From an uncultured Chloroflexia bacterium (GTDB taxonomy: Bacteria > Chloroflexota > Dehalococcoidia > GIF9 > AB-539-J10): a stretch of 64,000 nucleotides of DNA. Both the position numbers and the translations under genes were made by a program. How positions within the stretch are numbered: the first letter of the stretch is position 1; each line of letters opens with the position of its first letter. The DNA lies in the NCBI GenBank assembly GCA_963769975.1, contig CAVYNS010000002.1:280769-344768 (forward strand). Reading direction: 5' to 3'. Of the stretch, positions 22,105-41,889 are shown in pieces. The notes beneath the pieces were generated by a model, which had not been told where the DNA came from, did not search any database, and was given only the letters and a program-made list of their open reading frames with translations.

Positions 22105-22704
22105 TCATTTACCGGTCAGTATGTTAAGCATTTCTAAACCGTGAATGATCATAGTCACGGCTATGGCAGCCAGCAGCAAGCTAAATACCTTGGAAACTGC
22201 CTTCAGCCCACCCTGCCCAAGAAAACGAGCCACCTGTCCTCCCGCCATAAAAATCGCCCAAGCAATAAGCATATTCAGAGCGAATGACACAAGAACCATA
22301 TAGAGAGGGTATTGAGTTGCCAATAACAACAGCGTTGTTATTGTAGCCGGTCCTACGGTTAGAGGTGTGCCAATAGGGACTACCGCTACCATTTCCTCTT
22401 TGATTAGCTCTATCATTCGTCCGGTTGTCATGTGTTTTATGGAAAGCACTAGCAGAATAAGGCCGCCAGCGATAGCAAATGAACCTACTGAAATGTTCAT
22501 TACCCGCAGAATGAACTGCCCGAAAAACAAAAATATAAGACCGACAACGGTAGCTGTTATGGTAGCCACATGGATCATCTTGTAGCGCTCTTGCTTTGAC
22601 ATGCCTTCACTCATAGAGATGACGAAGGGCAGGATGCCCAGCGCGTCAACAACGATAAATAAGGGCACAAAGGTTAATATGAAATTCTGTAAGTTGTTAT
22701 TCAA
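22105..22704 (-). CDS. MarC family (UPF0056) integral membrane protein
   Basis: Six TM helices and the PIGTPLTVGPATITT motif characteristic of MarC/UPF0056. Confidence 0.75.
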   Translation of the reverse strand: MNNNLQNFILTFVPLFIVVDALGILPFVISMSEGMSKQERYKMIHVATITATVVGLIFLFFGQFILRVMNISVGSFAIAGGLILLVLSIKHMTTGRMIELIKEEMVAVVPIGTPLTVGPATITTLLLLATQYPLYMVLVSFALNMLIAWAIFMAGGQVARFLGQGGLKAVSKVFSLLLAAIAVTMIIHGLEMLNILTGK

Positions 22705-22904
22705 GAATACTTTGATCCATTAGAGCATAATAACATTCATAGTAAGCCAAGTAGCAAGTACAGTCAATACCCCCTCGCATTAGTATTCGATGGTGCCTTT
22801 CACTATCACTGACTTGCGCTCGGACCATAGTCGCCTTTGTCGGGTAACATGTCGATGAAAAGTTGGATAACAATCCGACCAAGGGTGGGCTTGATTAGCG
22901 AAGA

Positions 22905-24128
22905 CTATGAACGAGATCGGCGAGCCCACCAGTAGTACCCTATCGTAGCAACGAACGCTATCGAGGCGATGGGTGCCCATACGAGTCTGAGATCAGAGGG
23001 GAACGCATCAAGCAGTATTCCTCCCAGCAATGGACCTATTGCTACACCTGCGGTTTCGCTTAACCCGAAAAGCCCCATATATCGTCCCCTCTGATCTTGT
23101 GGAGCCAGTTCTCCTATCACTGAGAGTTGAACCGGAGCCGATATAATCTCGCCTGTTGTAATTATCGCCATTGCTCCCAGCGCCCATCCAAATTGTGTAA
23201 TCCAACCTAAGGATAAGTAGCCTAACCCGTAAAGCACACTCCCCAGTATGAGAGCTCGGAATTTCGCTATCCGCTTGAGGGCAAGAGTCATCGGATATTG
23301 AAAGAAAATCACTATCAAGCCATTCAAAGTGAGTAATAGACCATATTGGGCGATAGAAAAGCCGACTCTATCCACGGCAAAGATAGATAAAGTACTGCCA
23401 AGCTGTCCCGCAACTATGAACACCAGGAGACTCAACACTGCGAAGACCAGGAAAGGTCGGTCGTCGGCAGTAGGAAGCATGCTACGAAAGCTTACTCTAT
23501 TACTCGTTCCATATGAAGAATCGCGAACAAAGAAAAAAACAAGGAGGTAAACGATGCCACAGGTTAAAACCGGGATCCCAAAGAGCCAGCCATAAGGCAA
23601 AAAAGTGGCCAGATATCCCCCTATGGCAGGGCCAGCAGCCCAGCCTATATTAGCTCCTATACGAATGATCCCATATGCTTCTATCAGCTTCTCTTTCGAG
23701 GTAAAATCTGCCACCATGGCTGAGATCACAGAACGTGTTGTGGTGGCCATTGACCGACCAGCGATGTAGACAATTGCAATGGCCCACACTGGAGCTGAAA
23801 TCCCAATAAGAACAGCTAGTCCTGCATACAAGAATACACTTACTAAAGCAGCCATAAGTAGAATCGGGCGCCGACCAAATCTGTCTGAAAGCGCTCCTCC
23901 AAACGCCTGACTGACGGCTGAGCAAAGCCCACCAGCCAGGAGGATCACTCCGACCATAGTCATGGGAAGACCTCTATCCTGGTAAAGATATAAAGATAGA
24001 AACGGTATACAAACGGACCAACCGATTGCTCTGAAAAACTCAATGGTGGCCATAACCCATATCGCAGATTCAAATCGGTAAAAGGCATTTCGCAATGGGC
24101 TCTTGGCTTTTCCTGATAATCCGTTCAT
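22905..24128 (-). CDS. MFS transporter
   Basis: 12-TM topology and the G..SDRFGRR motif between TM2 and TM3. Confidence 0.8.
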   Translation of the reverse strand: MNGLSGKAKSPLRNAFYRFESAIWVMATIEFFRAIGWSVCIPFLSLYLYQDRGLPMTMVGVILLAGGLCSAVSQAFGGALSDRFGRRPILLMAALVSVFLYAGLAVLIGISAPVWAIAIVYIAGRSMATTTRSVISAMVADFTSKEKLIEAYGIIRIGANIGWAAGPAIGGYLATFLPYGWLFGIPVLTCGIVYLLVFFFVRDSSYGTSNRVSFRSMLPTADDRPFLVFAVLSLLVFIVAGQLGSTLSIFAVDRVGFSIAQYGLLLTLNGLIVIFFQYPMTLALKRIAKFRALILGSVLYGLGYLSLGWITQFGWALGAMAIITTGEIISAPVQLSVIGELAPQDQRGRYMGLFGLSETAGVAIGPLLGGILLDAFPSDLRLVWAPIASIAFVATIGYYWWARRSRS

Positions 24129-24194
24129 GGCTTGCGTAAAACACCAGATTATAACCTTTTTGGGTCCGTCTGCCTTCTGGTCTAACTAATAATC

Positions 24195-24352
24195 CCTGCG
24201 GCAACTACGAAGGGGAGGTGGTGAGGGTGGGCACCGACATTGGTCTTAAATGTCTCAAATGCCAGAGAAGGGTGAAAGAATTTGTCTCCAAAAGTCACTA
24301 ACTAACCAGCTTCGTGACAATAAAAAGTATCCTACAATAGTTTTTTGTGCAG
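24195..24352 (+). pseudogene. Truncated copy 2 of the DUF951 gene 3' half plus downstream sequence, with a 33-bp internal deletion
   Basis: Aligns to 21061-21290 at about 85% identity (cctgcggca.ctacgaa.gggaggtggt.agggtg.gcaccgacat.gg.cttaaatgtc.caaatgccagagaagggtg ... aaaga.tttgtctccaaa.gt.actaactaac.agcttcg). No start codon. Confidence 0.75.
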
Positions 24353-24436
24353 TTCCAAGGCACACTATGGAGTGGAGGAGTCACAAAACGCTGGAAAGTT
24401 CAATAAAGGACGGCTAAACAATACACCATTTCTCGA

Positions 24437-24981
<545 letters not shown>

Positions 24982-24985
<4 letters not shown>

Positions 24986-25431
24986 AGCTTGTTTTCTGGT
25001 GTGAATTTCAGCGCAATGCCGTCTATGCAATAGCGTTTGCCGGTCGGTGCCGGGCCATCATTGAAAACATGACCGAGATGGGCACCACACCTGGCGCAAA
25101 GTACCTCCGTCCGCAGCCTTCCCTCACTTGTATCAGGCTGCTGAACGATATTGAGCGGTGAGACTGGTTCATAATAACTGGGCCAACCCGTCCCGGAATT
25201 GAACTTGGTTGAACTGCGAAAAAGGTCCGTGCCACAACGGACGCAGCGGAAAATACCGGGTTCATGGATCTGGTCAAATGTGCAGGTGCCCGGATCTTCA
25301 GTTCCTTTCCTGGCGGTGATTTCATACTGCTCTGCGGTCAATAGTTTCTTCCATTCTGCGTCCGTTTTCTCTACTCTCTCCACCGTCACCACCTTCTTCT
25401 GTTTAGCATCATAAATCTTGACCGTGGCCAT
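24982..25431 (-). CDS. msrB: Peptide methionine sulfoxide reductase MsrB
   Basis: Two CxxC pairs plus the RCxxCGxHLGHVF catalytic motif. A strong AGGAGGTG RBS precedes MATVKIYD. The track ORF extends to 25479. Confidence 0.9.
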
Positions 25432-25641
25432 ATGCTCACCTCCTGCAGGCTTCCTCGGCGCATTATAGCACGTAGGCAAGCTTCACCTGCCAGTCATCCG
25501 TGTCTGCAACTGTTGACATCGTATGAGTAGTAGTTTATCGTTACTGCCAAGATGAAGGCCAAAGATGCGAAACAGTCTCAGGGCAAAAATCGCCCTTTGC
25601 GGAGTTCAGTCATTTATTATGGCGACTATTAGGAGGAGCCC

Positions 25642-26148
25642 ATGAACGAAGAAGGCAAGACAATAAAAGTTCCCAACGCCATCAAAAAGATGTTGCTAGC
25701 GGATGAACAAGTTATGGCAGTCATAAAGCAATCGAGGTTGAAGGCAGCCGTCACACCCGACTCCATAATAATCACTAACCATAGAATAATCAGGTATTCT
25801 CCATCAGCCCTGGGATTACACAAGGAGATTGAAGATTACAGATATGAAGATATAGCCAATCTGAAAATCGATAAGGGAATCATGTTTGCCACCATCACTG
25901 TAAAGCGCCGATTCATGAGCGAGGATCTAATCCTGGACAACCTCCCAAAAGGTCGGGCGGATTACATTTCCAGGGCCATTCAGGAGAATCTCAGGCGAAT
26001 GAGTAGCGCCCCCGCATCCCCAGTTACAACCAATCAGCGGGTTTCTCTAACTTCGCCAGAGGACCCTCTTCAAGTCCTGAAGCTTCGCTTTGCCAGAGGA
26101 GAGATTACTAAGGAACAATTTGAGGAAATGAAGAGAGCGTTGGAGTAG
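25642..26148 (+). CDS. Bacterial PH-domain (bPH_2/YdbS-like) protein with a C-terminal SHOCT domain
   Basis: The central region matches bPH_2 (ITNHRIIRY...IEDYRYEDIANLKIDKGIMFATITV). The C-terminus LKLRFARGEITKEQFEEMKRALE is a SHOCT motif. Confidence 0.6.
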   Translation: MNEEGKTIKVPNAIKKMLLADEQVMAVIKQSRLKAAVTPDSIIITNHRIIRYSPSALGLHKEIEDYRYEDIANLKIDKGIMFATITVKRRFMSEDLILDNLPKGRADYISRAIQENLRRMSSAPASPVTTNQRVSLTSPEDPLQVLKLRFARGEITKEQFEEMKRALE

Positions 26149-26233
26149 ACTTGGCTGACGCCCTGATTGCTCTCTATCCTGTTCCCGTAGCTGTGATGAG
26201 AGAGGGACGGAGTCTGCGTACACCTCTTGAATG

Positions 26234-26392
26234 CCAACGAAAGGTGCTTTTGGCAAGAAACGTGCCTGGGAGAAGGGTGAAAGAATTTGTCTCCAAAAGT
26301 GACTACCTAACCAGCTTCGCGACAATAAAAAGCACCCTGCGACGGTTTATGTAGTGAGGTAACAAAACTGGCTATTGTGTAATTCCACCAGG
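26234..26392 (+). pseudogene. Truncated copy 3 of the DUF951 gene 3' end plus about 100 bp of downstream sequence
   Basis: Aligns to 21130-21290 (ca..gaa.ggtgcttttggc.aga.a.gtg..tgggagaagg.tgaaaga.tttgtctccaaa.gtgacta.ctaac.agcttcgcg.caat.aaaag..ccctgcga..gtt..tg...tga.gtaacaaaac.ggcta.tgtgt). The track ORF 26151..26354 is a frame artefact across it. Confidence 0.75.
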
Positions 26393-26483: not shown

Positions 26484-29400
26484 ATGAGCATTGAGGATGA
26501 GATTGTGTCCGAGATTGTAGGAGGCAGAGGTGTACTCTTTGTTGGTGCGGGTCTATCAGTTGGAGCCGGCCTTCCAAGCTGGAAGGAGTTCGCCTCGGAA
26601 TTGACTGCCGAAATAGGTTGTCCCACAACACTTAGTCCTCTAGATATAGCTCAATACTATGAGAATGAAAAGGGACGTCATGCATTATATACAAAGCTAC
26701 GAACTAAGTTCAAGGAGAAAACAGTTAGATATAGCGAGAATCATCGGAAGCTTGTGTCTCTCGGATTCAGGACAATCATAACAACTAACTATGACAAATT
26801 GCTGGAAGACGCGCTATGCGCATGTGGCTATGAATTTCACTCGATCATAAATGACTATGATGGGTCCTATTGGGATGAGGAGAATGAAATACAACTGCTA
26901 AAACTACACGGCGACATTGAGAACGTCGACAGTATTGTGCTAACTAGGAGAGATTACAGCTTATTCTTCCGTACACATGCAATAATCACACGTCGGTTAC
27001 ATGCGATACTTCTGGATCATTCATTGATTTTTGTTGGGTATAATTTGGAAGACCCTGATTTCAACTTTGTCTTTAACGAGATCACTCTTGACCTTCAAGA
27101 ACACCGCTTGCCATCTTACTTCATGGGTTTCAATGTTGACAGATTTCGTCAGAAAGAACTAGATAGACTGGGAGTAAAAGTATTTAGTGTCGCAACTGAT
27201 GTCGTTGAACCTGATGCTGGTTATCAAGAAGCATACAACGTTGCGTTAGAAAAGAAACTCGATGACCTGAGCAGTAAAACCAAAGCCAGAAGCGATGAAA
27301 GATTAAAACCAGTGGCCAAAGAAAGTCAAGAATTCTCGCTTGTCAACGAGATCTATGACCTACTCCAAGCCATGGGATACAAGGTTTCAAGGCTGGCTGG
27401 CACTGCGTCTCGTCAGCGGCTTCTTGCAGAAAAGAAAAGTGAAGGAAAGAATATCAAGAGATTCATACTATGTTCTTCCTCTGACGTGGGGTCTGGTGAT
27501 GTTGATGCCATGTTGGCTGAGATCGCTACTGATCCTGATGCTGACGCTTGGCTTATTGCACCAAGCAAGGCTAGGATATCACCGGAATCCCGCACCTTGG
27601 CCGAAAAAAGTGGCCGTGTGCAAGTTTTGTCGCTGGCAGATTTCTATGCTCAAATGGTTCCCTTCGCGGACTATCTTGAATCTTTAGTGCGACAGTACGA
27701 GTCTAGCGATATACCGCGTTACTATGTAGAACTCGGATCTCGAAAACCGCAATTTGATATCACGCGCTCTACAGTCATAAGAGAAGACTCCTTTAGACCG
27801 ATCGACGAATATATAGACAGCTGGCTTCAGAGTTCTGACCAAAATCATATATCTATTCTGGGAGATTATGGCACCGGAAAGACTTGGTTTTGCAGAAGAT
27901 ACGCAGCGAAGCAGGCGAAAAGGTATCTCGCTGACCCAGAGCGCAACAGGATTCCCATACTAATCTCCCTGAAAGAATTCACTAAAACACTAAAGATAGA
28001 GCCACTGATAACAGATGCCTTGGTTAATGCCTATGGCTTACAGCTGGGGGGTGGATTTGCGACGTTCCAGCACTTGAATCAGTACGGTAAGCTACTAATA
28101 ATATTTGACGGCTTCGACGAGATGGAAAGCAGAGTCGACCAAATAGTGACAACAAAGAACTTCGAAGAACTGGCTAAGGCCGTTGTGCCCGGTGGTAAGA
28201 GCAAAGTTATCCTTACATGTCGCACGCCTTATTTTCAAAGCAACTTACAGGAAGTCACCCTCCTTATGGGGGAAGGTGAGGACCGCATTGACTTAAGAAG
28301 TCGCCCCAATTTTGAGATTATGTATTTGGAACCGTTCAATGACGAACAAGTGAAAGAAGCTCTAAGAAAACGTGACCCAGACTCATGGCAATACTACTAT
28401 CAACAAATAAAAGCTACGTACGATTTGCCCAACTTATCGAGGCGTCCTGTGATGATCGAAATGATAGTTGATACTCTACCTGATGTGAAGGATTTGCCAG
28501 AGATAAACTCCGCGATCCTTTACAGGAAATACACTGAGCGGTGGATAAAAAAGAACATACAGGAAGAGAGAACTTTCCTAGACGCGGAGAGCAAGCAAAT
28601 CTTTATGGAGGAATTGGCTTGGGAGATGTACAGGGCGGGAATGTCGAGCATTCACTTCACGGATATACCAGCGAGGGTACAGCGTCATTTTGGGCTTTCC
28701 TCCAAGACCACCATCGACTATTACGAACATGATATACGGGCACAGTCTTACTTGGTTCGCGACCATCAAGGCAATTATTCTTTTGCTCACAAATCCTTCT
28801 TGGAGTTTTTCGTCGCCTCGAGGATACTCAGGTCTATTAGAAAGAATGACGAAAGTCTTCTGGCAGAGCGTGGTCTGACGATAGAAATCTATGACTTTCT
28901 CATACATATGCTGGGACAAAGTGAACTCCTTATGGTGCACCAATGGCTTGAAACATCGCGTGAGTCAAAAGTTCGGCGAACTTGTGTGGTAATGTTGGGA
29001 CGACTCAAGGATTCATCTGCATGTGACGTGCTAGGTAAGGTTCTCACTGAGGACCCGCAGCCAAGTATTCGGCGTAGAGCGGCTAGAGCTCTTCTGTACA
29101 CTGGAGGGGAGAAAGCCAAGAAGATAATATTAGAAAGACTAAAACACGAGACAGACGGCAAGGTAATCCGCACCATCCTTGGGGCTTTCCCACATAAAGA
29201 TGCGAGTTTGGAACCAACGGTTGAGGATATAGCCCGAAATCGCGCTATCGAAGATGGTGTCCGGAATTCAGCCATAATAAGGGTTGCAAAGCTAGACCAG
29301 AAAGAAAAGGCAACATTATTGGCACAGCAATACTTTAGTGAGAATATTGACCAGTATAGAGGAAAGGAACAAAAGATACTAGAAGTCATAGACGAGGAGG

Positions 29401-29732
29401 CCGCTGCCGAAATAGCTGAGAGGATTCTCACATCTTCTAGAAGGCCCGAACAGAAACTACGCGCGATAGTCTATCTTCCCCCCAAAATAGATACTAGTCT
29501 AACACCATATGTCACCAGCGTGCTTCAGTCTTTCCTTCACGACCTCCAATATGCACAGAGCAAGGTCAAGTATCCTACCAAAAAAGTAAAAATTGGAGAG
29601 GAATTGGTAGCAAAATGCCGTAAAATTAGTGACTCACCTGACATTGCTAAGCTTTGCCGCTCAATTGAAGCGGTAATTGGCCAGTTAGATGAACGCTTTG
29701 CATCCGAAACAGGCGGGACAAAACCAGACTAG
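26484..29732 (+). CDS. SIR2-like domain fused to a NACHT/STAND NTPase with C-terminal HEAT repeats (1082 aa). It is a candidate bacterial NLR-like (bNACHT/Avs-like) antiphage protein.
   Basis: The N-terminus VLFVGAGLSVGAGLPSWKEF plus IITTNYDKLLE and LLKLHGDIEN form a SIR2 catalytic GAGxS/N-D/H set. The middle carries Walker A ILGDYGTGKTWF and NACHT-type Walker B LLIIFDGFDEM. The C-terminus has HEAT/PBS-lyase-like repeats (RRRAARALLYTGGEKA, KVIRTILGAF). A TATAAT-type -10 and an AGGAG RBS give it its own promoter. Confidence 0.75.
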   Translation: MSIEDEIVSEIVGGRGVLFVGAGLSVGAGLPSWKEFASELTAEIGCPTTLSPLDIAQYYENEKGRHALYTKLRTKFKEKTVRYSENHRKLVSLGFRTIITTNYDKLLEDALCACGYEFHSIINDYDGSYWDEENEIQLLKLHGDIENVDSIVLTRRDYSLFFRTHAIITRRLHAILLDHSLIFVGYNLEDPDFNFVFNEITLDLQEHRLPSYFMGFNVDRFRQKELDRLGVKVFSVATDVVEPDAGYQEAYNVALEKKLDDLSSKTKARSDERLKPVAKESQEFSLVNEIYDLLQAMGYKVSRLAGTASRQRLLAEKKSEGKNIKRFILCSSSDVGSGDVDAMLAEIATDPDADAWLIAPSKARISPESRTLAEKSGRVQVLSLADFYAQMVPFADYLESLVRQYESSDIPRYYVELGSRKPQFDITRSTVIREDSFRPIDEYIDSWLQSSDQNHISILGDYGTGKTWFCRRYAAKQAKRYLADPERNRIPILISLKEFTKTLKIEPLITDALVNAYGLQLGGGFATFQHLNQYGKLLIIFDGFDEMESRVDQIVTTKNFEELAKAVVPGGKSKVILTCRTPYFQSNLQEVTLLMGEGEDRIDLRSRPNFEIMYLEPFNDEQVKEALRKRDPDSWQYYYQQIKATYDLPNLSRRPVMIEMIVDTLPDVKDLPEINSAILYRKYTERWIKKNIQEERTFLDAESKQIFMEELAWEMYRAGMSSIHFTDIPARVQRHFGLSSKTTIDYYEHDIRAQSYLVRDHQGNYSFAHKSFLEFFVASRILRSIRKNDESLLAERGLTIEIYDFLIHMLGQSELLMVHQWLETSRESKVRRTCVVMLGRLKDSSACDVLGKVLTEDPQPSIRRRAARALLYTGGEKAKKIILERLKHETDGKVIRTILGAFPHKDASLEPTVEDIARNRAIEDGVRNSAIIRVAKLDQKEKATLLAQQYFSENIDQYRGKEQKILEVIDEEAAAEIAERILTSSRRPEQKLRAIVYLPPKIDTSLTPYVTSVLQSFLHDLQYAQSKVKYPTKKVKIGEELVAKCRKISDSPDIAKLCRSIEAVIGQLDERFASETGGTKPD

Positions 29733-29838
29733 GACTGCCTATTCATAACGCCCATATAATCCAAATTTGCCACCCTCATCATAGCTAACATAAAGCTACA
29801 CAAAATGATGAAAAGTTGGATAATAATCCGACCAAGGG

Positions 29839-29979
29839 GTTGGCTTTATCTGCTCTGTGTGCTAGTTTATATACTGTTTTATGGCTCGTTGTATTTTTCA
29901 TATTGATTTGGATGCCTTCTTCGTTTCTGTGGAGCAGGCGTTTAACCCCGAGCTGAAGGAAAAACCACTAGTAACCTGA
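29839..29979 (+). pseudogene. Duplicated dinB promoter and 5' end (truncated, 32 codons then stop). It is a direct repeat of 32110-32250.
   Basis: gttggctttatctgctctgtgtgcta.tttatat.ctgttt.atggctcg.tgtat.tt.catattgatttggatgccttcttcgtttctgtggagcagg aligns at about 88% identity with the region upstream of and into dinB. The ATG sits at the same offset (42 bp) in both copies. Confidence 0.8.
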
Positions 29980-30064
29980 ACCTATACTCCTCTTTATGTT
30001 CTTAATTATTATAGCGAAAGCGACAGTATTAAATAGATAAATTCCCTGCGACTCTCCAGATTGT

Positions 30065-30694
30065 TCATTGCCGGAGTTTTCTCCGCGATACAAAGTAAAG
30101 GGCCAGCCACACTATTGAGCTGAAAATGATGAAACCTACTATAAGATAGGGTGCCGGATTCGTTTTTACATTCTCCAGTCCAAATCGAGCGCCAAGACCA
30201 AGCAGGATGATCACGATGTCATAGGTGAGCGAGGAGAGGGCTACGCCCAAAGCGAAGTCGGAATATCGCAGGCGCGTGACTCCGGCAGCCAGCGATGGTA
30301 TCTGCAGCAGACCCGGCGTTAACCTCACAACGGCAATTGATAGTGCAGGCTGCTTGTTTAGTCCGGCCCTAACCCATTCTATCCGATTAGGTAGCCATGG
30401 GAAGCGCTTCCCAACGCGGTTAATGAGCGGACTCCCCAGGACACGGCTGACCCAGTAAAGTATGGCTGCTCCAACCTCCCTTCCCAGCAACAGCATCACA
30501 ACAATGAGCAATACTTGCGTTGACAGCGGACCAACATTGTAGCTGGTGAAGAATAGAAATACTTCCACTGTTAAGAGCAGGGGGACTCCGATGTCGCCGA
30601 CAATACCTAGCGAAAACAGCACGCCCAGCGCAGCGGGGTTTCCCAGGTTCACCCCGTCAGTTAATCCCGACAGCAGCGAATTCAACCATTCCAT
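30065..30694 (-). CDS. DedA/VTT-domain (SNARE-associated, TVP38/TMEM64-like) membrane protein
   Basis: Multi-TM protein with the conserved DedA core (..R..PG..R..S..AG). Confidence 0.7.
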   Translation of the reverse strand: MEWLNSLLSGLTDGVNLGNPAALGVLFSLGIVGDIGVPLLLTVEVFLFFTSYNVGPLSTQVLLIVVMLLLGREVGAAILYWVSRVLGSPLINRVGKRFPWLPNRIEWVRAGLNKQPALSIAVVRLTPGLLQIPSLAAGVTRLRYSDFALGVALSSLTYDIVIILLGLGARFGLENVKTNPAPYLIVGFIIFSSIVWLALYFVSRRKLRQ

Positions 30695-30790
30695 GAGACT
30701 ACCCTTGCCAGCCAGTCTTTCGATAAACTAGGCACGCATTTGAAGTCGAGGAGTACGAATTCTTTTGCAACAGCCATTCGCCCATCCGAA

Positions 30791-32056
30791 TTACCTTACT
30801 GACCTGATGCGCCAAACTAGTCCCGCTGCTGCCAGCGACGACAAAGTGGCCAAGAGAAAGATACCTGAATAACCCCAGCCGGAAGGCCCCAGCCAATATA
30901 GTAAAGCACCTCCTACTAAAGGAGCCAGCGTCTGCGGCAGGGTGGAGGAGAATCCCCACACGCCCAGATCCCTCGCTACACGGTTCCTGTCCGGTAAGAC
31001 ATCTAACGCCAGGGCCCAATCCACGCTGGTGTAGGCGCCATAGCCCAGACCGAACAGCACCCCGACTACCAGGATGACCTTCCAAATCGGTGCCACGACA
31101 AAGAACAAAAAAGCGACGGCCATAGCCAGGCTCGCGAAACTGACAATGCCCTTCCTCCCAATTCGGTCCGATAGAGCACCGGCAACAAGTGCGCTGGCCA
31201 GAGAGCCTCCCAGCGCTACACTGGATATCACAAGAGTCGCACCGACGAAATTCGGAAGCCCTATCCTGTCTCTGATGAAATATGCCACAAAGGTGACCAT
31301 GGCATAGAGGGCCAACATCACCAGTGCCCTGGTTATTGAAAGCCAAAGGAAATCGGGATTTTTCAGAGACTGAATCCATGACATCCGGGAAGAGGTGTGA
31401 TGCTCCGGCGCCGGGCTATCAGGCACCTTCCACACTGTGAATGCGGCTCCAAGAAGTAACACCAGGGCAAGTATCGTGTAGAAGGGATAAGTATGCCCGG
31501 GGCTGACTAGCGCGGCAGCGACACCAAAACTGGAAACAGTACCAAGCATTGACATCAGCCCCATGTATCCGGACGCTTTGCCCCGTTGCCCTTGAGGCAC
31601 CTGGTCAGGAATATAGCCTTGATAGGCAGCGCCGCTGATATTATTCCCCAGTTGCACTAATGTAAAGGCAGCCGCCAGGAGGAAAAGTGAAGTCGTCCTG
31701 GGCATCCACAGCAATCCGGCTACATTTATCAAAGCGCCACCCAGGACGAAAGGACGTCTTCTACCCCAGCCGAGCCGGCACCGGTCGGAAAATGCCCCCG
31801 CCACAGGCTGTGCCACCATGCCGATCAGAGAACCACCACCGGCAATCAACCCCAAAGCAAGGCCCTTGCTGACTTCCGGAGAACGGCTCAACACCTCAAC
31901 AGGCAAAACGACGGCTAGCATTGCGCCCCAATGGAAGTTCAGTGAAAACCAGTAGATGCTCAGATTAAGATGGTCTCTAGTGGATAGAGTCTTTTCGGAC
32001 AGGAGCGCTTCCTCCTGCATGACAGACATGTTACTACGTGAACGATTCCTGGTCAA
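30791..32056 (-). CDS. MFS transporter (second, unrelated copy)
   Basis: 12-TM topology, the GAFSDRCRLGWGRRRP loop motif and MFS-like organisation. Confidence 0.75.
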   Translation of the reverse strand: MTRNRSRSNMSVMQEEALLSEKTLSTRDHLNLSIYWFSLNFHWGAMLAVVLPVEVLSRSPEVSKGLALGLIAGGGSLIGMVAQPVAGAFSDRCRLGWGRRRPFVLGGALINVAGLLWMPRTTSLFLLAAAFTLVQLGNNISGAAYQGYIPDQVPQGQRGKASGYMGLMSMLGTVSSFGVAAALVSPGHTYPFYTILALVLLLGAAFTVWKVPDSPAPEHHTSSRMSWIQSLKNPDFLWLSITRALVMLALYAMVTFVAYFIRDRIGLPNFVGATLVISSVALGGSLASALVAGALSDRIGRKGIVSFASLAMAVAFLFFVVAPIWKVILVVGVLFGLGYGAYTSVDWALALDVLPDRNRVARDLGVWGFSSTLPQTLAPLVGGALLYWLGPSGWGYSGIFLLATLSSLAAAGLVWRIRSVR

Positions 32057-32151
32057 TAGGGGTTACGCATTTGAGAATCTGCTACAATAGAGTAATCTCC
32101 TATTACAGCGTTGGCTTTATCTGCTCTGTGTGCTAGGTTATATGCTGTTTC

Positions 32152-33321
32152 ATGGCTCGGTGTATCTTCCATATTGATTTGGATGCCTTCTTCGTTTCTG
32201 TGGAGCAGGCACTTAACCCGGAGCTGAAGGGAAAGCCGGTAATCGTGGGCGGAGACCCTGAGCGCCGCGGCGTAGTTGCCTCTGCTTCCTATGAAGCGCG
32301 CCATTTCGGCATCCACGCCGGCATGCCGCTATCCAAAGCCCGCCGCCTTTGTCCCCAGGCAATTTTTATTAGAGCTAACTTCTCACGCTACAGAGATGCT
32401 TCATCCAGGTTTATGGAAATCCTTGCCGATTTCTCCCCTGACATCGAACCTTTAGGGCTTGACGAAGCCTATCTTGATGTCACCGGATGTGTAGAACCCT
32501 ACGGTTCTCCCCGGAAACTGGCGCTGGCGATAAAAGAAAGAATAAATAAGGAGCTCCAGATCACAGCTTCCGTGGGCATAGGTACATGCAAGGTGGTGGC
32601 CAAAATTGCCTCAACCCTGTGTAAGCCCGATGGACTGCTCGAGATAGCCCCTGGAGAGGAACAGGCTTTCCTCAATCCACTACCCATAGCCAAATTACCG
32701 GGAGTGGGCGAAAAAACAGAGCAGTCATTAAAAGAGATGGAAATAACGACAATAGGAGAATTCGCCTCGCTGCCTTTAGACACGATAACAAGACAGTTGG
32801 GAGCCACTGGAGCAGTGATTCATAGCTATGCCAAGGGGATAGATGACCGAGAAGTGGAGGCGCCGGGTGAAGCTAAATCCATCAGCCAGCAGCTCACTTT
32901 TGCCCGCGATACCTTGAACCACAACTTTCTTGAGGCTAACCTGCACAGTTTATGCCAGGAGGTCTGCCAGGAGCTGCGCAGCCAAAATAAAAAGGCAAAA
33001 TGTGTAGCGATAAGACTGAGGTATGCCGACTTTAAGACAATCACCCGCCAAATCACCTTACAAGAAGCCAGCGACGTTACCCAGGTTGTCTTTGCCACAG
33101 CCCAGCAGCTGCTGAGTAAAACTCTGGCAAAACAAGAAAAACCGATACGCCTCATAGGTATTCGAATATCAAGCCTGGTTGGCAAGGAGAAACAACTTCC
33201 GATGTTTGATTCCAGGGTTGCAAAGTTCGGGCACCTAGATCAAGCCGTAGACAAAATTCGCAAGAAATATGGCCCGACAGCGATAAAAACAGGCGACGAC
33301 GTTCTTTCTGAGAGCAATTAA
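32152..33321 (+). CDS. dinB: DNA polymerase IV (Y-family translesion polymerase)
   Basis: IFHIDLDAFFVSVEQ..KPVIVGG is the Y-family palm N-terminus. The little-finger domain follows at the C-terminus. Confidence 0.9.
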   Translation: MARCIFHIDLDAFFVSVEQALNPELKGKPVIVGGDPERRGVVASASYEARHFGIHAGMPLSKARRLCPQAIFIRANFSRYRDASSRFMEILADFSPDIEPLGLDEAYLDVTGCVEPYGSPRKLALAIKERINKELQITASVGIGTCKVVAKIASTLCKPDGLLEIAPGEEQAFLNPLPIAKLPGVGEKTEQSLKEMEITTIGEFASLPLDTITRQLGATGAVIHSYAKGIDDREVEAPGEAKSISQQLTFARDTLNHNFLEANLHSLCQEVCQELRSQNKKAKCVAIRLRYADFKTITRQITLQEASDVTQVVFATAQQLLSKTLAKQEKPIRLIGIRISSLVGKEKQLPMFDSRVAKFGHLDQAVDKIRKKYGPTAIKTGDDVLSESN

Positions 33322-33420
33322 GAGAACGGGAAATCCTAAATTCCAAGCACCAAATCCCAAACAATTCAAAAATTAAAGGTCAAAAATAAAATGACAAATC
33401 AAAACGCAAAAATGTAGTGC
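33322..33420. repeat. AT-rich intergenic repeat, family member 3, in reverse orientation
   Basis: caaaaattaaaggtcaaaaataaaatgacaaatcaaaacgcaaaaatg is the reverse complement of the ttgc.tttgtcattttatttttgacc core. Confidence 0.55.
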
Positions 33421-33580
33421 GAGGCTTTAGCCTCGTGCAAGGACAGGATTGCACGACCTTAAAAGGTCGCACTACAATCGTGTTTGGAATTTAGACAAAA
33501 AGTGGGCGGGGACGAGCCCCGCCCCTACAAATGAATGTAGTGGCGAGGTTTATCCTCGTCTGATAAATCAAAGGTTCAGG
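33412..33580 (+). ncRNA. Structured element. It contains a cloverleaf-like three-hairpin unit closed by the stem gtagtgc/gcactac (33414-33479), a GC hairpin gggcggggacgagccccgccc and a second partial gtagtggcgagg..cctcgtc unit.
   Basis: Nested perfect inverted repeats read by eye. There is no coding potential. The region lies between dinB and ilvE. Whether it is a tRNA-like relic, a MITE or a regulatory RNA is unknown. Confidence 0.35.
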
Positions 33581-36218: not shown

Positions 36219-38369
36219 CTAGTTGGCACTTGTGTCCCCCTTTCTTGTTACACTTACGACGTTCCATACTGAATAAATTCTAGACATTATTTTGCTTAGC
36301 TGAGCAGCACTTTTCACCTCTAAGGTAAAATGCAGTGTGACACTATCTTCATGGTGATTGTCCATGCTTGCCTCGCTAAGGTTTACCCCTTCCTCGGCTA
36401 TAATAGCACTAATATCCCGAATAAGGCCAACTCTATCCCAAGCATCAACCTGAATCATCACGGGGTAAACCTGCGCCACATCACCCCATTCTACCTTGAT
36501 CAATCTTTCTTTCTCTTCTTCATGGATAATATTAGGGCAATCCCTCCGGTGGACAGTGATACCCCGGCCTTGAGTAATATACCCGATAATCTTATCCCCA
36601 GGCAAGGGATGACAGCAATTAGCCAAACGAGTAAGTAAGTCCCCCACGCCCAATACGTCAATACTTACAGGACTGATCTTCCGTGGAGGCAGAACTTCAA
36701 TCCCCTCTCCAGTTGGCTCCAACTCTCCGCTTAATTTAAGCATTATTTGAGAAGAACTGATGCTGCCATTGCCCAAGGCGGCAAAAAGGTCATCTGCGCT
36801 GTCATAGTCAAGCAGACGCGCTACCTTGTCAACACCAGGCAAACCGATGCCTATCCTCTTAAGCTCCTTCTCCCAAATTTGCTTACCGGTTTCAATACTT
36901 TGACTTCGTTCCTGCTTGGCAAACCATTGCCGAACTTTATTGCGCGCGTGAGAAGTCTTAACATAGCCCAGCTCGGGATTAAGCCAGTCCAGACTCGGGC
37001 CTTTATCTGCTTTGCTGGCCATAATCTCCACTACATCGCCATTCTTAAGAGCGTAGTTTAAAGGTTCCAGCCTGCCATTCACTTTCGCCCCAATACATTT
37101 ATAGCCCAAGTCCGAATGAATTCGAAAGGCGAAATCCAGAGGAGTGGCACCTCTGGGCAACTCTTTTATCTCTCCCTTAGGAGTATAGACAAACACTCGA
37201 TCTACAAGAACATCGGTCTTAATAGACTCCATAAATTCTTCACTATCAAGCTCCTCCCGCCAATCACCAAGCTGCCGCAGCCAGTCTATTTCATTTTTAA
37301 ATTGCCCACCCGCTTTCCCTTCCTTATAGAGCCAGTGAGCAGCCACCCCATATTCGTCGACCTGATGCATATCATAGGACCGAATTTGTATTTCTAGCGG
37401 TGTTGTACCCTGACACATTACCGTAGTATGCAAAGCTTGATAGCCATTATCCTTGGGATTAGCGATAAAATCGTCGAACTCTTCAGGTATAGGACGCCAA
37501 AAATTATGAATTACGCCTAATGCCTTATAACAATCGGAAACCGAGTCCACTAACAAGCGTAAGGCAAAAAGGTCATGGATATCCCCAAAATTCTTACCCT
37601 GTGCATCATACTTGCCCATCTTTTGATATATGCTGTAAATATGTTTTGGTCGGCCATAAACCTTGGCTTTTATGCCGACTTTATCTAATTCCTGGCTTAG
37701 CTTCTGACTAACCTCAGTTATAAAGCCCTCCCTCTCAACCCGCTTCCCAGCCACTAAACGGGCAATCCGATGGTATACACGTGGCTTCAGATAGCGAAAA
37801 GCCAAATCCTCTAATTGCCATTTCGCTTCCCTATAACCTAAACGGTGCGCCAGGGGAGCATATATATCCAGGGTCTCTTGAGCGATAGCACGCCGTCTCT
37901 CTACGGGTAAAGCCCCTAGCGTACGCATGTTATGTAACCTGTCCGCTAATTTGATAAGAACCACCCGTAGGTCTTCAGCGGAAGCCACGAGCATTTTGCG
38001 TAAGTTTTCCGCCTGAACTTTCGATTTTGTTTCTTCCGTTCGAGCTCGACTGGCAAGCTTGTTCAGCTTGGTAACCCCGTCAACGAGCTTAACTACTTGT
38101 AAACCAAACTTGGCCTCGATCTCATCCAATGAGACGCCACAATCCTCGGGGACATCGTGCAACAGGGCAGCAGCTAAGGTTTCGGCATCAAGGTGCAGCT
38201 CAGCCAAAATCATAGCTGTATTTACAGGATGTTCTAAATAAGGCTCTCCTGTTTTACGCACTTGCCCCTGGTGAGCTTTGGCAGCGAATTCGTAAGCTGC
38301 TTTTACTATAGCTACCTTATCATCAGGCAGATAAGTGCTAGCCTGTTTTATAAGAGCATTGGCTGCCAT
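36219..38369 (-). CDS. relA: Bifunctional (p)ppGpp synthetase/hydrolase RelA/SpoT
   Basis: HD hydrolase domain (HLDAETLAAALLHDVPED), synthetase domain, then TGS and ACT domains. Confidence 0.95.
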   Translation of the reverse strand: MAANALIKQASTYLPDDKVAIVKAAYEFAAKAHQGQVRKTGEPYLEHPVNTAMILAELHLDAETLAAALLHDVPEDCGVSLDEIEAKFGLQVVKLVDGVTKLNKLASRARTEETKSKVQAENLRKMLVASAEDLRVVLIKLADRLHNMRTLGALPVERRRAIAQETLDIYAPLAHRLGYREAKWQLEDLAFRYLKPRVYHRIARLVAGKRVEREGFITEVSQKLSQELDKVGIKAKVYGRPKHIYSIYQKMGKYDAQGKNFGDIHDLFALRLLVDSVSDCYKALGVIHNFWRPIPEEFDDFIANPKDNGYQALHTTVMCQGTTPLEIQIRSYDMHQVDEYGVAAHWLYKEGKAGGQFKNEIDWLRQLGDWREELDSEEFMESIKTDVLVDRVFVYTPKGEIKELPRGATPLDFAFRIHSDLGYKCIGAKVNGRLEPLNYALKNGDVVEIMASKADKGPSLDWLNPELGYVKTSHARNKVRQWFAKQERSQSIETGKQIWEKELKRIGIGLPGVDKVARLLDYDSADDLFAALGNGSISSSQIMLKLSGELEPTGEGIEVLPPRKISPVSIDVLGVGDLLTRLANCCHPLPGDKIIGYITQGRGITVHRRDCPNIIHEEEKERLIKVEWGDVAQVYPVMIQVDAWDRVGLIRDISAIIAEEGVNLSEASMDNHHEDSVTLHFTLEVKSAAQLSKIMSRIYSVWNVVSVTRKGDTSAN

Positions 38370-38601
38370 TTAATTCATAATACTGCAAGAGCAAAAGTAA
38401 CGCAAATTATAGCCAACCATAAATCCCGACACATCTCAGGGTAAACCCCACATGGAAATCTCTATTTCCCTCACCGGGATTGCTTCGGCTTACTTCGTCA
38501 GCCTCGCAATGACAAAGAGGACGCCCGCAACGATTTTTGTGTCACCGTCTCTTTAAATCCCTTTAATATGGTAAACTAACAGATAGAGAAGGAGGATCTC
38601 T

Positions 38602-39861
38602 GTGCATAAAGCCCCTCGAGGAACATTCGACATCCTGCCAGAAGAGCATGCCTACTGGAAATACGTAGAGGAAAAGGCTGCTTCCTTATGTCAGCTCTAT
38701 GGCTACCAACCATTGAGCACACCGGTATTCGAAGATGCTCAGATTTTCACTAAAACTGTGGCCGGAGGGACGGATATCGTCGACAAGGAAATGTATATCT
38801 TCGCAGATAAAAGTGGCCAAGAATTGGCTTTAAGGGCAGAGGGCACAGCGCCAGTTTGCCGAGCTTATCTAGAGCATGGATTCTTTAACTTACCTCAACC
38901 CGTGAAGCTTTACTACATTGGACCAGCCTTCAGGTATGAGCGCCCCCAGGCTGGGAGGTACCGCCAGCATCACCAATTCGGCTTTGAGGCTTTAGGGGAG
39001 GCCGACCCCGCCCTCGATGCTGAAGTAATTGAAATGGCCCGACAATTCTTTTATTCATTAGGGCTGTCTAGATTTACTGTCCAACTCAACAGCATTGGCT
39101 GTAAGCTTTGCCGCCCCGGGTATTTAGAAGTACTGAAGCAACATTATTCAGATTATACAGACCATCTTTGCTCTGACTGCAAAGCCCGGCTGGTCAAGAA
39201 CCCGCTGCGCCTGCTTGACTGCAAGAAACCCTCCTGCCAGGAGATAGCTAAAACCGCACCGAAAATTACCGATTATCTATGCCCTGAATGCCAACTCCAC
39301 TTCCAGAGCGTTCAGAAATATTTAAGGGCAATGAGCATCGCTTTTCACTTGAATCCTAGACTGGTCCGCGGCCTGGATTATTACACCAGGACAGTGTTCG
39401 AGGTGGAACCTCGAGATAAAGGAGGGCAAAGCACGCTTGGCGGAGGTGGCCGCTATGATAACCTCATCGAGGAATTAGGAGGAAAACCTACTCCGGCGGT
39501 GGGATTTGCAACCGGGCTGGAAAGAATAATTTTGAATTTAAAGAAACAGAAATTAGATATTCCGGCATTGCCCAAGCCTGATGCTTTCATCGCCTACTTG
39601 GAAGAAGAAGCCAAGATTGAGGCGATGAAGCTGGCCTCGGAGCTACGTAAAGCCGGTATTGCCGTTATCATGGCTACAGGTGATAAGAGCTTGAGAGGGC
39701 AGCTGAGACAGGCTAATTCGTTAGACATTGCCTACGCCCTTATCCTCGGCGAACAGGAGATCAGCCAGCGCAATGTGATGTTGCGAGACATGAGAAGCGG
39801 AGAACAGAAAACCATTCCACTAGCTGAAATAGCTGGATTTCTCAAACAGCTCAAAGTGTGA
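38602..39861 (+). CDS. hisS: Histidyl-tRNA synthetase
   Basis: Class II aaRS motifs and the HisRS signature (YIGPAFRYERPQAGRYRQHHQFG). Confidence 0.95.
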   Translation: MHKAPRGTFDILPEEHAYWKYVEEKAASLCQLYGYQPLSTPVFEDAQIFTKTVAGGTDIVDKEMYIFADKSGQELALRAEGTAPVCRAYLEHGFFNLPQPVKLYYIGPAFRYERPQAGRYRQHHQFGFEALGEADPALDAEVIEMARQFFYSLGLSRFTVQLNSIGCKLCRPGYLEVLKQHYSDYTDHLCSDCKARLVKNPLRLLDCKKPSCQEIAKTAPKITDYLCPECQLHFQSVQKYLRAMSIAFHLNPRLVRGLDYYTRTVFEVEPRDKGGQSTLGGGGRYDNLIEELGGKPTPAVGFATGLERIILNLKKQKLDIPALPKPDAFIAYLEEEAKIEAMKLASELRKAGIAVIMATGDKSLRGQLRQANSLDIAYALILGEQEISQRNVMLRDMRSGEQKTIPLAEIAGFLKQLKV

Positions 39862-39966
39862 TATAATATACTTCTAATATGCTATTGACCTCAAATAGAA
39901 GTCTAAATTGTTCCTCCATTAGTCTAACTTTGCACTTCAGCAAATGTACTCGGAAACAGATTACCC

Positions 39967-41889
39967 ATGTCTCAAAATGACGTAAACAACCGCCCAAGCT
40001 CGGAATATACCGCCAAAGATATCCAGATTCTAGATGAACTTAAGGCCGTACGGTTACGCCCAGGCATGTATATTGGCGGCACTGATAAATACGGATTACA
40101 CCAAATCCTCTACGAGATAGTGTATAACAGCATAGACGAAGCCATGGCCGGCTGCTGCGACCATATCGAAGTAACAGTCCATGAAGATAACAGCGTCACA
40201 GTAATTGATAATGGACGGGGTATCCCTACCGAAAATATCCCGGGACAAGATATCACAGCCCTGGAGGCAGTGTTAACTCGCCTGCACGCCGGAGCCAAGT
40301 TCAGCAATCATGTCTATGGTGTATCCAGTGGACTCCATGGCGTTGGTGCTTCCGTGGTAAATGCCTTGTCTTCCTGGCTCAAAGCTGAGGTTAAACGCGA
40401 AGGAAAACTCTACCGCCAGGAATATCAACAAGGGGTCCCACAAGGCGAAGTAGAAATCATTGGAGACGCCCAGGACACAGGCACTTTAATTTCCTTCCTT
40501 GCTGATAAGGAAATCTTCGAGAGCATTGATTACGATTTCGACATGGCTTGCCAGCGATTAAGGGAACTAGCTTACCTGAATAAAGGGGTAGAAATAGCTC
40601 TTAAAGACGAGAGAGCCAATCAAGAGAAGGCGTTCTACTTCGATGGGGGAATAGCTAGTTATATTCGCCGCCTGAATAAAAATAGAGCTGTTGTTCACCC
40701 CTACCCCATTTATATCTCTACTATGATAGATAGCACCGTAATAGAAGCAGCTCTACAATATAACGATAGCTTCACCGAATCCACTATCTCCTTCGCCAAC
40801 TGCGTCAACACTAGAGACGGAGGTAGCCATCTTACCGGCTTTCGTTCGGCATTAACCCGGGTTTTCAACGATTATGCCCGGAATACGAAAGTTTTAAAGG
40901 ATGCCGACCCTAATTTGACCGGAGAAGATGTGCGCGAAGGGGCAGTGGCCATCATCAGTGTCAAACTACCCCAGCCTCAATTTGAGGGGCAAACCAAGGC
41001 CAGGCTGGGAAACCCCGAAGTAAAAAGTCAGGTTGAATCTGCGGTAGCCAATAGCTTGTCCCTGTACCTCGAGCAACACCCCAACGAGGCCAAGGCAATC
41101 ATAGAGAAGTGCCTCACCGCCGCCAGAGCCAGAGAGGCGGCACGCAAAGCTCGTGACCTCGTTTTAAAGAAGACCGGCTTCGAAACATCAACTCTGCCCG
41201 GGAAACTGGCCGATTGTTCCGAGAAGGAGCCGGCCAAATGCGAGATTTACCTGGTGGAAGGTGACTCAGCTGGCGGCTCAGCTAAACAAGGGCGAGACCG
41301 CCGCTTTCAAGCCATTCTCCCTCTGAGAGGCAAAATACTGAATGTAGAAAAGGCTGCCAAAGACAAAATTCTGGAACATGAAGAGCTAAGAGCCATTGTC
41401 ACAGCTTTAAAAGCCAGTGCTGACGAACTATTTGATAGCTCTAAACTTCGCTACCACAGAATAATCATCATGACCGATGCCGATGTTGATGGCTCGCACA
41501 TTCGTACTTTGCTCCTTACCTTCTTTTTCCGCCACATGACAGAGTTAATTAACCAGGGCTATCTCTACATTGCCCAACCACCTCTGTACCGCCTCAAGTC
41601 CGGTAAACAGGAGTCCTGGCTTTACTCCGAACAGGAAAAGGAAGAAAAAGTTAAAGGACTAAAAGGAGACAAAGTAGAGATTCAGAGGTATAAAGGGCTG
41701 GGGGAGATGACTCCCGTGCAACTATGGGAGACAACCATGAACCCCGCTAACAGAACCCTGCTCAAGGTACATGTAGAGGATGCCATAGCCGCAGACCAGG
41801 CTTTTCGCATGCTCATGGGCGATGAAGTTTTGCCTCGCAAAAGATTCATCCTGGCCCACGCGCAAAGCGTCAGAAACCTCGATATTTAG
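39967..41889 (+). CDS. gyrB: DNA gyrase subunit B
   Basis: GHKL ATPase N-terminus (VYNSIDEAMAG) and TOPRIM (EIYLVEGDSAGGSAKQGRDR). Confidence 0.95.
   Translation: MSQNDVNNRPSSEYTAKDIQILDELKAVRLRPGMYIGGTDKYGLHQILYEIVYNSIDEAMAGCCDHIEVTVHEDNSVTVIDNGRGIPTENIPGQDITALEAVLTRLHAGAKFSNHVYGVSSGLHGVGASVVNALSSWLKAEVKREGKLYRQEYQQGVPQGEVEIIGDAQDTGTLISFLADKEIFESIDYDFDMACQRLRELAYLNKGVEIALKDERANQEKAFYFDGGIASYIRRLNKNRAVVHPYPIYISTMIDSTVIEAALQYNDSFTESTISFANCVNTRDGGSHLTGFRSALTRVFNDYARNTKVLKDADPNLTGEDVREGAVAIISVKLPQPQFEGQTKARLGNPEVKSQVESAVANSLSLYLEQHPNEAKAIIEKCLTAARAREAARKARDLVLKKTGFETSTLPGKLADCSEKEPAKCEIYLVEGDSAGGSAKQGRDRRFQAILPLRGKILNVEKAAKDKILEHEELRAIVTALKASADELFDSSKLRYHRIIIMTDADVDGSHIRTLLLTFFFRHMTELINQGYLYIAQPPLYRLKSGKQESWLYSEQEKEEKVKGLKGDKVEIQRYKGLGEMTPVQLWETTMNPANRTLLKVHVEDAIAADQAFRMLMGDEVLPRKRFILAHAQSVRNLDI

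Follow-up and report, generated by a model that had tools for sequence, protein, structure and literature searches.

Partial dinB and DUF951 copies as probable scars of homology-driven insertion at a cassette hotspot of uncultured Dehalococcoidia

Background

Integrative and conjugative elements of the SXT/R391 family insert in the 5' end of prfC, each a ~100-kb conjugative element with its own integrase and a 17-bp core, and in Dehalococcoides mccartyi genomic islands target ssrA. Integrase-free hotspots between core genes are also known, among them the 'minimal mobile elements' of Neisseria and core defence hotspots, in which changes are usually replacements that leave no internal repeats, and homology-facilitated illegitimate recombination (HFIR) occurs in Acinetobacter, Streptococcus and Pseudomonas. 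Here, we describe a locus in a 64,000-nucleotide stretch of an uncultured Chloroflexia bacterium (Dehalococcoidia, GIF9; contig CAVYNS010000002.1 of assembly GCA_963769975.1), referred to below as the window, in which the 5' end of the Y-family polymerase gene dinB is present twice around a cassette encoding a DedA-family protein and a major facilitator superfamily (MFS) transporter. The spacer between the DUF951 gene and dinB is probably an integrase-free insertion hotspot filled with stacked cassettes, and the dinB repeat a scar of homology-driven recombination. As such, the locus clearly exemplifies a type of genome plasticity that is, for the most part, already known.

In HFIR-detection experiments with Escherichia coli lacZ, most events were single crossovers of circles carrying a truncated homologous fragment, with target duplications of 109-950 bp (PMC3240628). 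The window locus is like these events in the ~100-950 bp target duplication that flanks the insert, the arbitrary truncation, the minimal microhomology and the lack of a site-specific recombinase; it is unlike them in being a natural multi-cassette array that uses two flanking genes as anchors. Tycheposons, which are found in Prochlorococcus islands, carry integrases and accrete in tandem at tRNA genes with partial repeats of the target gene (bioRxiv 10.1101/2020.12.28.424599). With these and the ssrA islands the locus shares a fixed hotspot, successive insertions that push older ones inward, partial target copies between modules and a cargo of defence and adaptation genes; those elements, however, encode a recombinase of the tyrosine or serine type and have att cores that are short, fixed and located in RNA genes, whereas here fragments of 80-320 nt from the ends of protein genes, variable breakpoints and no detectable recombinase are found. 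SXT/R391 insertion is similar in that a housekeeping gene is entered at its 5' end, the incoming DNA supplying an upstream region and N-terminal codons and the old 5' end remaining as a stub, but the insert here is a 2.1-kb cassette without mobility genes. The Neisseria-type hotspots likewise have conserved flanks, variable cargo, some empty sites, homologous recombination in the flanks and an enrichment of defence genes; the present locus differs in its additive accumulation, with cassettes split by partial duplicates of both flanks. Integron arrays, too, are linear series of small cassettes, promoterless to few-gene and including toxin-antitoxin pairs, with repeats of ~100 nt; in contrast to these, no IntI or attI was found here, the repeats are gene-end fragments and not attC hairpins, and the orientation is mixed.

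Results and discussion

The dinB 5' end is duplicated around a DedA-MFS cassette

Coordinates are those of the window, also where positions in relatives are given as window equivalents, and L-numbers denote contigs or loci of relatives. The segment around the repeat has the following features:

29807 to 29838, + strand: GATGAAAA followed by one 23-nt unit (GTTGGATAATAATCCGACCAAGG), the native sequence directly 5' of the dinB unit in this clade
29839 to 29970, + strand: copy A of the dinB unit, displaced and truncated, with native upstream context kept; contiguous with dinB in L001
29971 to 30064, no strand: left end of the cassette, non-coding, common to L040 and L042; illegitimate joint with dinB codon ~29 at its left edge
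30065 to 30694, - strand: DedA/VTT-domain membrane protein (209 aa; Pfam VTT_dom)
30791 to 32029, - strand: MFS transporter 2 (MFS2; Pfam MFS_1), 412 aa from ATG as in the L039 gene call, or 421 aa from a TTG at 32056
32030 to 32109, no strand: region 5' of MFS2, which makes up the right end of the cassette; homology to the home locus (see below) breaks off exactly at 32109/32110
32110 to 32241, + strand: copy B of the dinB unit, joined to the intact gene
32152 to 33321, + strand: intact dinB (Y-family polymerase IV, 389 aa; Pfam IMS, IMS_HHH and IMS_C), the conserved right flank

The initial annotation had placed a dinB duplication at 29839-29979 and 32110-32250. Self-comparison bears this out as a direct repeat of 128 nt without gaps (29839-29966 and 32110-32237; 117/128 positions identical, 91%; blastn E ~1e-47), in which the longest perfect blocks measure 41 nt and 27 nt. 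The repeated unit consists of 42 nt 5' of the dinB ATG and the first 28 codons; its left edge is sharp at 29839/32110, and on the right the similarity decays over ~29967-29975 and 32238-32246. As also stated there, the first copy is truncated, its open reading frame (ORF, 29881-29979) reaching a stop after 32 codons (MARCIFHIDLDAFFVSVEQAFNPELKEKPLVT*), the last four of which are foreign, and the second is the start of an intact dinB. The segment between the copies measures 2.14 kb, and Pfam matches agree with the claimed DedA and MFS genes on the opposite strand.

The duplication is real and not an artefact of assembly. The contig L068 is collinear with the window at 99.915% over 15.2 kb and L039 at 99.76% over 10.3 kb, both with the two copies in place, so that three assemblies from different samples show an identical order and are only 13-25 single-nucleotide polymorphisms (SNPs) apart; both junctions also recur in L040, which is 93% identical. 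Metagenomes are the probable source of the window and of all relatives, and the region is strain-variable, circumstances in which a chimeric join of strain variants across conserved sequence might arise. Given the agreement of order among the samples, the junctions shared by L040, and the 9% difference between the copies, because of which an assembler would not collapse them or loop through them, such a join is extremely improbable. An apparent assembly fault was seen elsewhere: positions 1-345 of L039 match window 36292-36636 in an orientation opposite to the rest of that contig, and are probably a fold-back artefact at the contig end.

Comparison with L001 gives the insertion polymorphism directly. 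Window positions 29799-29970 align with L001 9920-10090, and since L001 then runs straight into dinB, the window differs from it by a 2,271-bp insertion that includes one repeat copy. The two loci otherwise share the island (MarC, MFS1, MsrAB and bPH), with a different SIR2-STAND gene in L001 for the SIR2-NACHT gene of the window and no DedA-MFS2.

The two copies are alleles

Of the 128 aligned positions, 11 differ between the window copies, and six of the eight differing codons are synonymous and two non-synonymous (P=0.004 against the 25% synonymous expected under neutrality). Pooling ten pairs of internal and resident copies gave 43 synonymous to 45 non-synonymous differences, against ~25% synonymous for neutral decay (P ~1e-6). 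Because the differences are biased to synonymous ones, the copies are best described as alleles that diverged while functional, and much of the divergence appears to have arisen while both sat in working dinB genes of different lineages. Allelic divergence is not what a replicated target produces, and the term 'target-duplication signature' used in the initial annotation was therefore abandoned for a repeat that is 128 nt long, 9% divergent and synonymous-biased at 6:2.

The 118-nt unit was too conserved for a phylogeny to resolve which copy is native. The native copy was instead judged by its context (the upstream 23-nt unit) together with the ratio of synonymous to non-synonymous changes: copy A keeps the native upstream 23-nt unit of the clade, and copy B adjoins cassette-specific DNA. 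One private substitution is common to both window copies and another to both L040 copies, which weakly hints at later gene conversion between copies.

The DUF951-dinB spacer is a hotspot with empty sites and recurring scars

A genome scan with DinB yielded ~30 Dehalococcoidia loci, and hotspot content was compared across L001-L029. The gene order pyrF-DUF951-dinB-class-IV aminotransferase (AT4)-aldolase-LexA, conserved in relatives, is the ancestral one. Between DUF951 and dinB there is anything from 0 to >10 kb; where the spacer is occupied, it measures 0.8 to >10 kb and carries varied genes. In L005, L009, L025 and L027, DUF951 directly abuts dinB (25-87 nt), an arrangement that the initial annotation had proposed to look for; L017 and L018, where pyrF abuts dinB and DUF951 was not detected, were counted as empty sites as well. 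The duplication is thus not carried by all relatives, a possibility that had also been raised, as L001 is without the cassette and several hotspots are empty. The spacer has the marks of an insertion hotspot: conserved flanks (pyrF-DUF951 on the left and dinB-AT4-aldolase-LexA on the right), variable content, empty sites, accessory and defence cargo, and a mosaic G+C content (35% at 21.2-22.0 kb, and 52.8% with local peaks to 58% in the DedA-MFS2 cassette, against 48.2% for the rest of the window).

In ~20 relatives the cargo is variable (defence, stress, transporter and toxin-antitoxin genes) and is split by one to four partial copies of the dinB 5' end (dinB') or the DUF951 3' end (DUF951'). 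Internal dinB' copies were found in L003, L004 and L040 (one each), L007 and L019 (two each) and L006 (three), and internal DUF951' copies in L001-L004, L006, L015 and L019. The cargo of relatives includes the SIR2-STAND protein, an Hsp70-like protein with a PD-T4-6-like kinase, and a MORC-type ATPase with a phosphoesterase; TPR proteins, KatG, mannosylphosphoglycerate synthase, MarR with an ABC-2 transporter, HicAB and GNATs are also present, among others. Each repeat travels with a particular cassette. The DUF951' copy that follows MFS1 has its left end at the equivalent of 21043-21064, and the one that follows the HicB(-HicA) cassette at 21114/15 where mapped (L002, L015 and L019), on account of which constant end the latter cassette behaves as a portable unit. 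This toxin-antitoxin cassette was observed in four loci (L014 1729-3159, L015 8271-9701, L002 6292-6540 and L019 8024-8272), and in L014 and L015 it is accompanied by a DUF559/restriction endonuclease-like gene.

The flank duplicates of the window and its relatives are 83-323 nt long, with variable outer ends. For the internal dinB' copies these lie at the equivalents of 32195, 32228, 32236, 32237, ~32240, ~32245, 32284, 32288, 32339 and ~32432, i.e., at no fewer than eight positions, and the left ends of DUF951' copies fall into at least four classes. The ancestral spacer measures ~130 nt and runs from the end of DUF951 through GGTTTGTGTAGTGAGGTAACAAAAC... and ...GGAGTCACAAAACGATGAAAA to zero to three copies of the 23-nt unit and GTTGGCTTT. 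Judged against the relatives' own sequences, cassettes start at differing points within this spacer, and the apparently constant inner edge dissolves. At the copy-B junction, where ...TATTACAGC is joined to GTTGGC, the usual GATGAAAA is missing. L006 contains a direct head-to-tail joint of dinB' to DUF951', which either tandem duplication or the insertion of a circularised piece of the hotspot would be expected to produce.

One to three tandem copies of the 23-nt unit stand directly 5' of the dinB-linked unit in L001, L002, L004, L019, L020 and L056. In the window it occurs in two places only (22862-22884 and within 29807-29838), where none is expected by chance. A further 40-bp segment that the initial annotation had noted as shared with the region 3' of the first MFS gene is real: 22854-22885 and 29807-29838 match over 32 nt at 97%, and the match extends to 22853-22899. 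The unit itself (GTTGGATAAnAATCCGACCAAGG) contains an inverted repeat, TTGGAT-N4-ATCCGA, and is present in zero to three tandem copies 5' of the dinB unit across relatives; together with the following GTTGG it forms a small hairpin, followed by T-rich sequence (29828-29843). The unit might serve as an operator or as a terminator, or be prone to recombination.

The cassette has a separate home locus

A metagenome scan with MFS2 as the query identified ten contigs in which a DedA-MFS2 pair lies at 86-92% nucleotide identity beside a divergent gene with a YkoP domain. Homology of this home locus to the window ends at 32110 on the right and 30038 on the left, and the joint at 32110 shows ~1 nt of microhomology with the parent sequences. 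The DedA-MFS2 cassette thus came from a separate YkoP-MFS2-DedA home locus. In L056, which has the closest MFS2 relative (97%), MFS2 is followed by a complete YkoP gene, ~140 nt, three 23-nt units, the dinB unit and dinB; because L056 keeps that order, the three-gene module once stood upstream of the dinB spacer. YkoP is absent from the lineage of the window and L040.

The home locus at L043 4992-12234 (also L046, L052, L054, L057 and L058) is itself an array with direct repeats of ~100-175 nt that are 82-91% identical. In L043 the repeats separate four groups: a SAM methyltransferase; YkoP-MFS2-DedA; an M24 peptidase; and SOUL with heliorhodopsin. L043 and L046 have only the 2.8-kb module (97.8%) and the array repeats in common. 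The reverse strand of the L043 repeat reads like the C-terminus of a protein, and a search for an intact parent gene found none.

Proposed mechanism and its alternatives

Under homology-driven insertion, the incoming DNA would have consisted of the DedA-MFS2 cassette and, fused to it, a dinB allele of its own (upstream region and ~29 codons), and would have recombined with the resident dinB 5' end. The likeliest route would be a single (Campbell-type) crossover of a circularised fragment, presumably dependent on RecA; an equivalent route would combine homologous recombination at dinB with illegitimate joining at the opposite end. The expected outcome is the resident upstream context followed by copy A, whose 28 codons would form a dead-end stub, then the cassette, and then copy B driving the intact dinB. 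The order of events may have begun with capture of the YkoP-MFS2-DedA module into the hotspot with YkoP still present, a state kept in L056; YkoP and the spacer would then have been lost and the MFS2 upstream region fused to the dinB unit, after which a fragment from the left end of the cassette to dinB codon ~29 would have moved into an L001-like genome. Repeated events with either flank as homology anchor would stack cassettes, each leaving a truncated DUF951 3' or dinB 5' copy. In agreement with insertion by homology, the target is duplicated with an arbitrary truncation point and the copies come from different alleles. Perfect blocks of 41 and 27 nt remain between the copies, through which the cassette could also be lost or become circular again.

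Several observations weigh against homology-driven insertion. Many unrelated cassettes abut nearly the same nucleotides of the dinB unit (the joint of GATGAAAA to GTTGGC), and six outer breakpoints lie within 20 nt (equivalents of 32228-32247), just past the ultra-conserved stretch that codes for HIDLDAFFVSVEQ; either could hint at a preferred site. The similar repeat-separated array at another locus (L043) may point to a dedicated trans-acting mechanism, and, because several cassette proteins are without a Pfam match, a novel recombinase is conceivable. Exact-protein look-ups recovered no empty site of the same lineage, all near-identical contigs carrying the insertion, and among these contigs no circular or excised form was observed; these uncultured organisms are not known to have natural competence or any other route of DNA entry. 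Taken together, the near-constant cassette position, the breakpoint cluster, the palindromic 23-nt unit and the L043/L046 array leave room for a dedicated or trans-acting mechanism.

In one such mechanism, the repeats would be the attL and attR of site-specific integrative elements, now decayed (islands or remnants of prophages), that targeted the dinB 5' end and the DUF951 3' end. Each element would have brought a replacement gene end, and its integrase would have been lost or would act in trans; comparable cases are CIME-like cis-mobilisable elements, tycheposon remnants and SXT at prfC. An att origin would account for the recurrent use of one intergenic site in many lineages with both flanking genes restored intact, for the nearly constant left edge of the dinB unit and the clustering of outer breakpoints at 32228-32247, and for the palindromic 23-nt unit with its variable tandem copy number beside the dinB unit. 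An excisionase-type HTH_17 protein lies next to dinB in L002, and elements that carry an integrase are known to accrete in tandem with repeats of partial genes (bioRxiv 10.1101/2020.12.28.424599). However, Pfam scans of ~70 cassette proteins from ~20 relatives, some of them without a family match, and of window proteins around the locus detected no integrase, resolvase or transposase. The home locus is without similarity to the dinB unit, the microhomology at the joint is only ~1 nt, and IMG/VR, which covers viral contigs only, held no contig with the dinB unit or the DUF951 unit. With these results, and with at least eight outer breakpoints and variable cassette starts, 'att-like' was not retained as a mechanism, and an att origin of the repeats is regarded as unlikely, if worth keeping in mind. 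A classical attL/attR element was rejected in the strict sense, with no integrase found and no fixed core, although the cluster at 32228-32247 leaves some doubt. The HTH_17 domain is at the C-terminus of a 161-aa protein (L002 9468-9953; excisionase/MerR-type) encoded directly 5' of dinB, and is the only hint of a recombination directionality factor in any cassette.

An intrachromosomal tandem duplication from inside DUF951 to inside dinB, by unequal crossing-over or replication slippage and with the cassette content later swapped by homologous exchange, would need neither a circular intermediate nor an imported dinB allele. The dinB'-DUF951' joint of L006 is the classic novel junction of such an event, and the private substitutions shared within the window pair and within the L040 pair imply that copies in one genome interact. 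Yet 11 differences in 128 positions, mostly synonymous, are as for alleles of diverged lineages, the cassette differs in G+C content and has a documented external home locus, and copy B adjoins cassette DNA and not a DUF951 fragment, which together make this origin distinctly improbable. Two further candidates were rejected. Target-site duplications of a transposon or insertion sequence are expected to be identical repeats of ~2-14 bp, against 128 nt at 91% here, and the insert holds DedA and MFS only, with no transposase and no significant inverted repeats at its ends. As for an integron, there is no IntI, the repeats are collinear DUF951 and dinB fragments, and neither strong inverted repeats nor attC-like hairpins were seen.

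Gene content of the island and its surroundings

The remainder of the island, to the left of copy A, contains the following features:

20235 to 21035, + strand: pyrF (orotidine monophosphate decarboxylase; Pfam OMPdecase, E=9e-33), conserved left flank, syntenic in relatives
21010 to 21201, + strand: intact DUF951 gene (63 aa; Pfam DUF951, E=7e-22)
21040 to 21275, + strand: U1, the resident left-flank unit, comprising the 3' part of DUF951 and ~74 nt downstream
21359 to 22704, both strands: cassette of a 166-aa protein of unknown function (+ strand, 35% G+C) and a MarC-family membrane protein (22105-22704, - strand)
22853 to 22899, + strand: relic junction of GATGAAAA, one 23-nt unit and the ~14 first nt of the dinB unit, just 3' of MFS1
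22905 to 24128, - strand: MFS transporter 1 (MFS1) cassette, with a DUF951' fragment always next to it, in five genomes
24194 to 24343, + strand: U1', partial copy of the DUF951 3' end, truncated on its left at the 21061 equivalent
24437 to 26148, mixed strands: cassette of MsrA (-), MsrB (-) and a bPH-SHOCT protein (+), common to L001
26230 to 26380, + strand: U1'', partial copy of the DUF951 3' end, truncated on its left at the 21125 equivalent
26484 to 29732, + strand: SIR2-NACHT-HEAT protein (1082 aa; Pfam; PADLOC ThsA-like SIR2 domain, E=6e-41), a defence-type cassette in the dinB-adjacent slot

With cassettes in parentheses, the full order is two TldD/PmbA genes (- strand), pyrF, DUF951, (166-aa protein, MarC), relic junction, (MFS1), DUF951', (MsrA, MsrB, bPH-SHOCT), DUF951'', (SIR2-NACHT-HEAT), 23-nt unit, dinB' (copy A), (DedA, MFS2), dinB, class-IV aminotransferase, aldolase II and LexA. 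The three-copy DUF951 3' array reported initially was found again at 21061-21275, 24194-24343 and 26230-26380. The relic junction matches L001 9927-9973, and the equivalent place in L019 is occupied by a 135-nt dinB' copy. Short ORFs over the DUF951' fragments (26151-26354 and 24250-24417) have been called as genes publicly (67 aa, L039/L068) and are probably annotation artefacts of repeat scars.

The SIR2-NACHT gene had been described as lying between two kinds of att-like repeats; it is indeed flanked by DUF951 3' and dinB 5' repeats, and only the qualifier 'att-like' was not upheld. In L001 the same slot (6691-9819), between the same flanking repeats, holds a protein of unrelated architecture on the opposite strand (SIR2-STAND(nSTAND5)-TPR-cold-shock domain). 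The exchange of SIR2-NACHT and SIR2-STAND looks like defence-gene replacement in a fixed slot.

The initial annotation had included the dinB promoter in the duplicated part. A sigma-70 consensus scan of the dinB unit called no promoter, and position and conservation are what suggest one; a candidate would have TTGGCT as its -35 and, after a spacer of 17 nt, an extended -10 (TGcTAGTTT), with an ATG that is nearly leaderless. Control of the stub by the SOS response was considered and is unsupported, since the LexA/SOS box GAAC-N4-GTTC has no occurrence in the whole window; lexA sits after rpsT without an obvious shared operator. A search for structured RNA gave no Rfam match in 20-34 kb at E<=0.1.

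No tRNA gene lies near the hotspot. Inverted repeats resembling repetitive extragenic palindromes or miniature inverted-repeat transposable elements lie 3' of dinB (33411-33559; AATGTAGTGCGAGGCTTTAGCCTCGT...), and related copies with the orientation inverted are found 5' of pyrF in L002 (5032-5167) and at L013 58-110. To the right of the hotspot, 36219-45207 contains RelA/SpoT, HisS, a gyrB-sized ORF (39967-41889) and dnaA (43846-45207, - strand), and to the left are FtsK, RNase J and TopA. Because dnaA, FtsK, TopA, RelA/SpoT and HisS are all within <=~15 kb of the locus, with dnaA ~11 kb from the DUF951-dinB spacer, the hotspot is close to the origin. In Dehalococcoides, high-plasticity regions flank the origin, of which this location is reminiscent.

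Conclusions

For annotation, the truncated "dinB" stub and the DUF951 fragments of such loci should be treated as scars and not as genes. The scars form a readable record of successive insertions, and partial flank copies are practical markers for hotspots of this kind in metagenome-assembled genomes. A broader possibility, which we hold with considerable doubt, is a general integrase-independent, homology-addressed cassette system in these Dehalococcoidia, or else a trans-acting recombinase that recognises the conserved spacer and the palindromic 23-nt units. In a homology-addressed system, a module joined to a conserved gene end (DUF951 3', dinB 5' or the L043 repeat) would loop out between repeats and re-insert by a single crossover into any relative with that gene. 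If this is true, these organisms would maintain origin-proximal arrays of defence, stress and transporter cassettes as a RecA-driven functional analogue of the integron.

The locus shows streamlined uncultured Dehalococcoidia stacking accessory genes, including SIR2-NACHT/STAND defence genes, toxin-antitoxin pairs, oxidative-stress enzymes and transporters, without recognisable mobile-element machinery. If the cassettes move by homology alone, the turnover of defence genes in these bacteria would depend on recombination between relatives and not on integrases.

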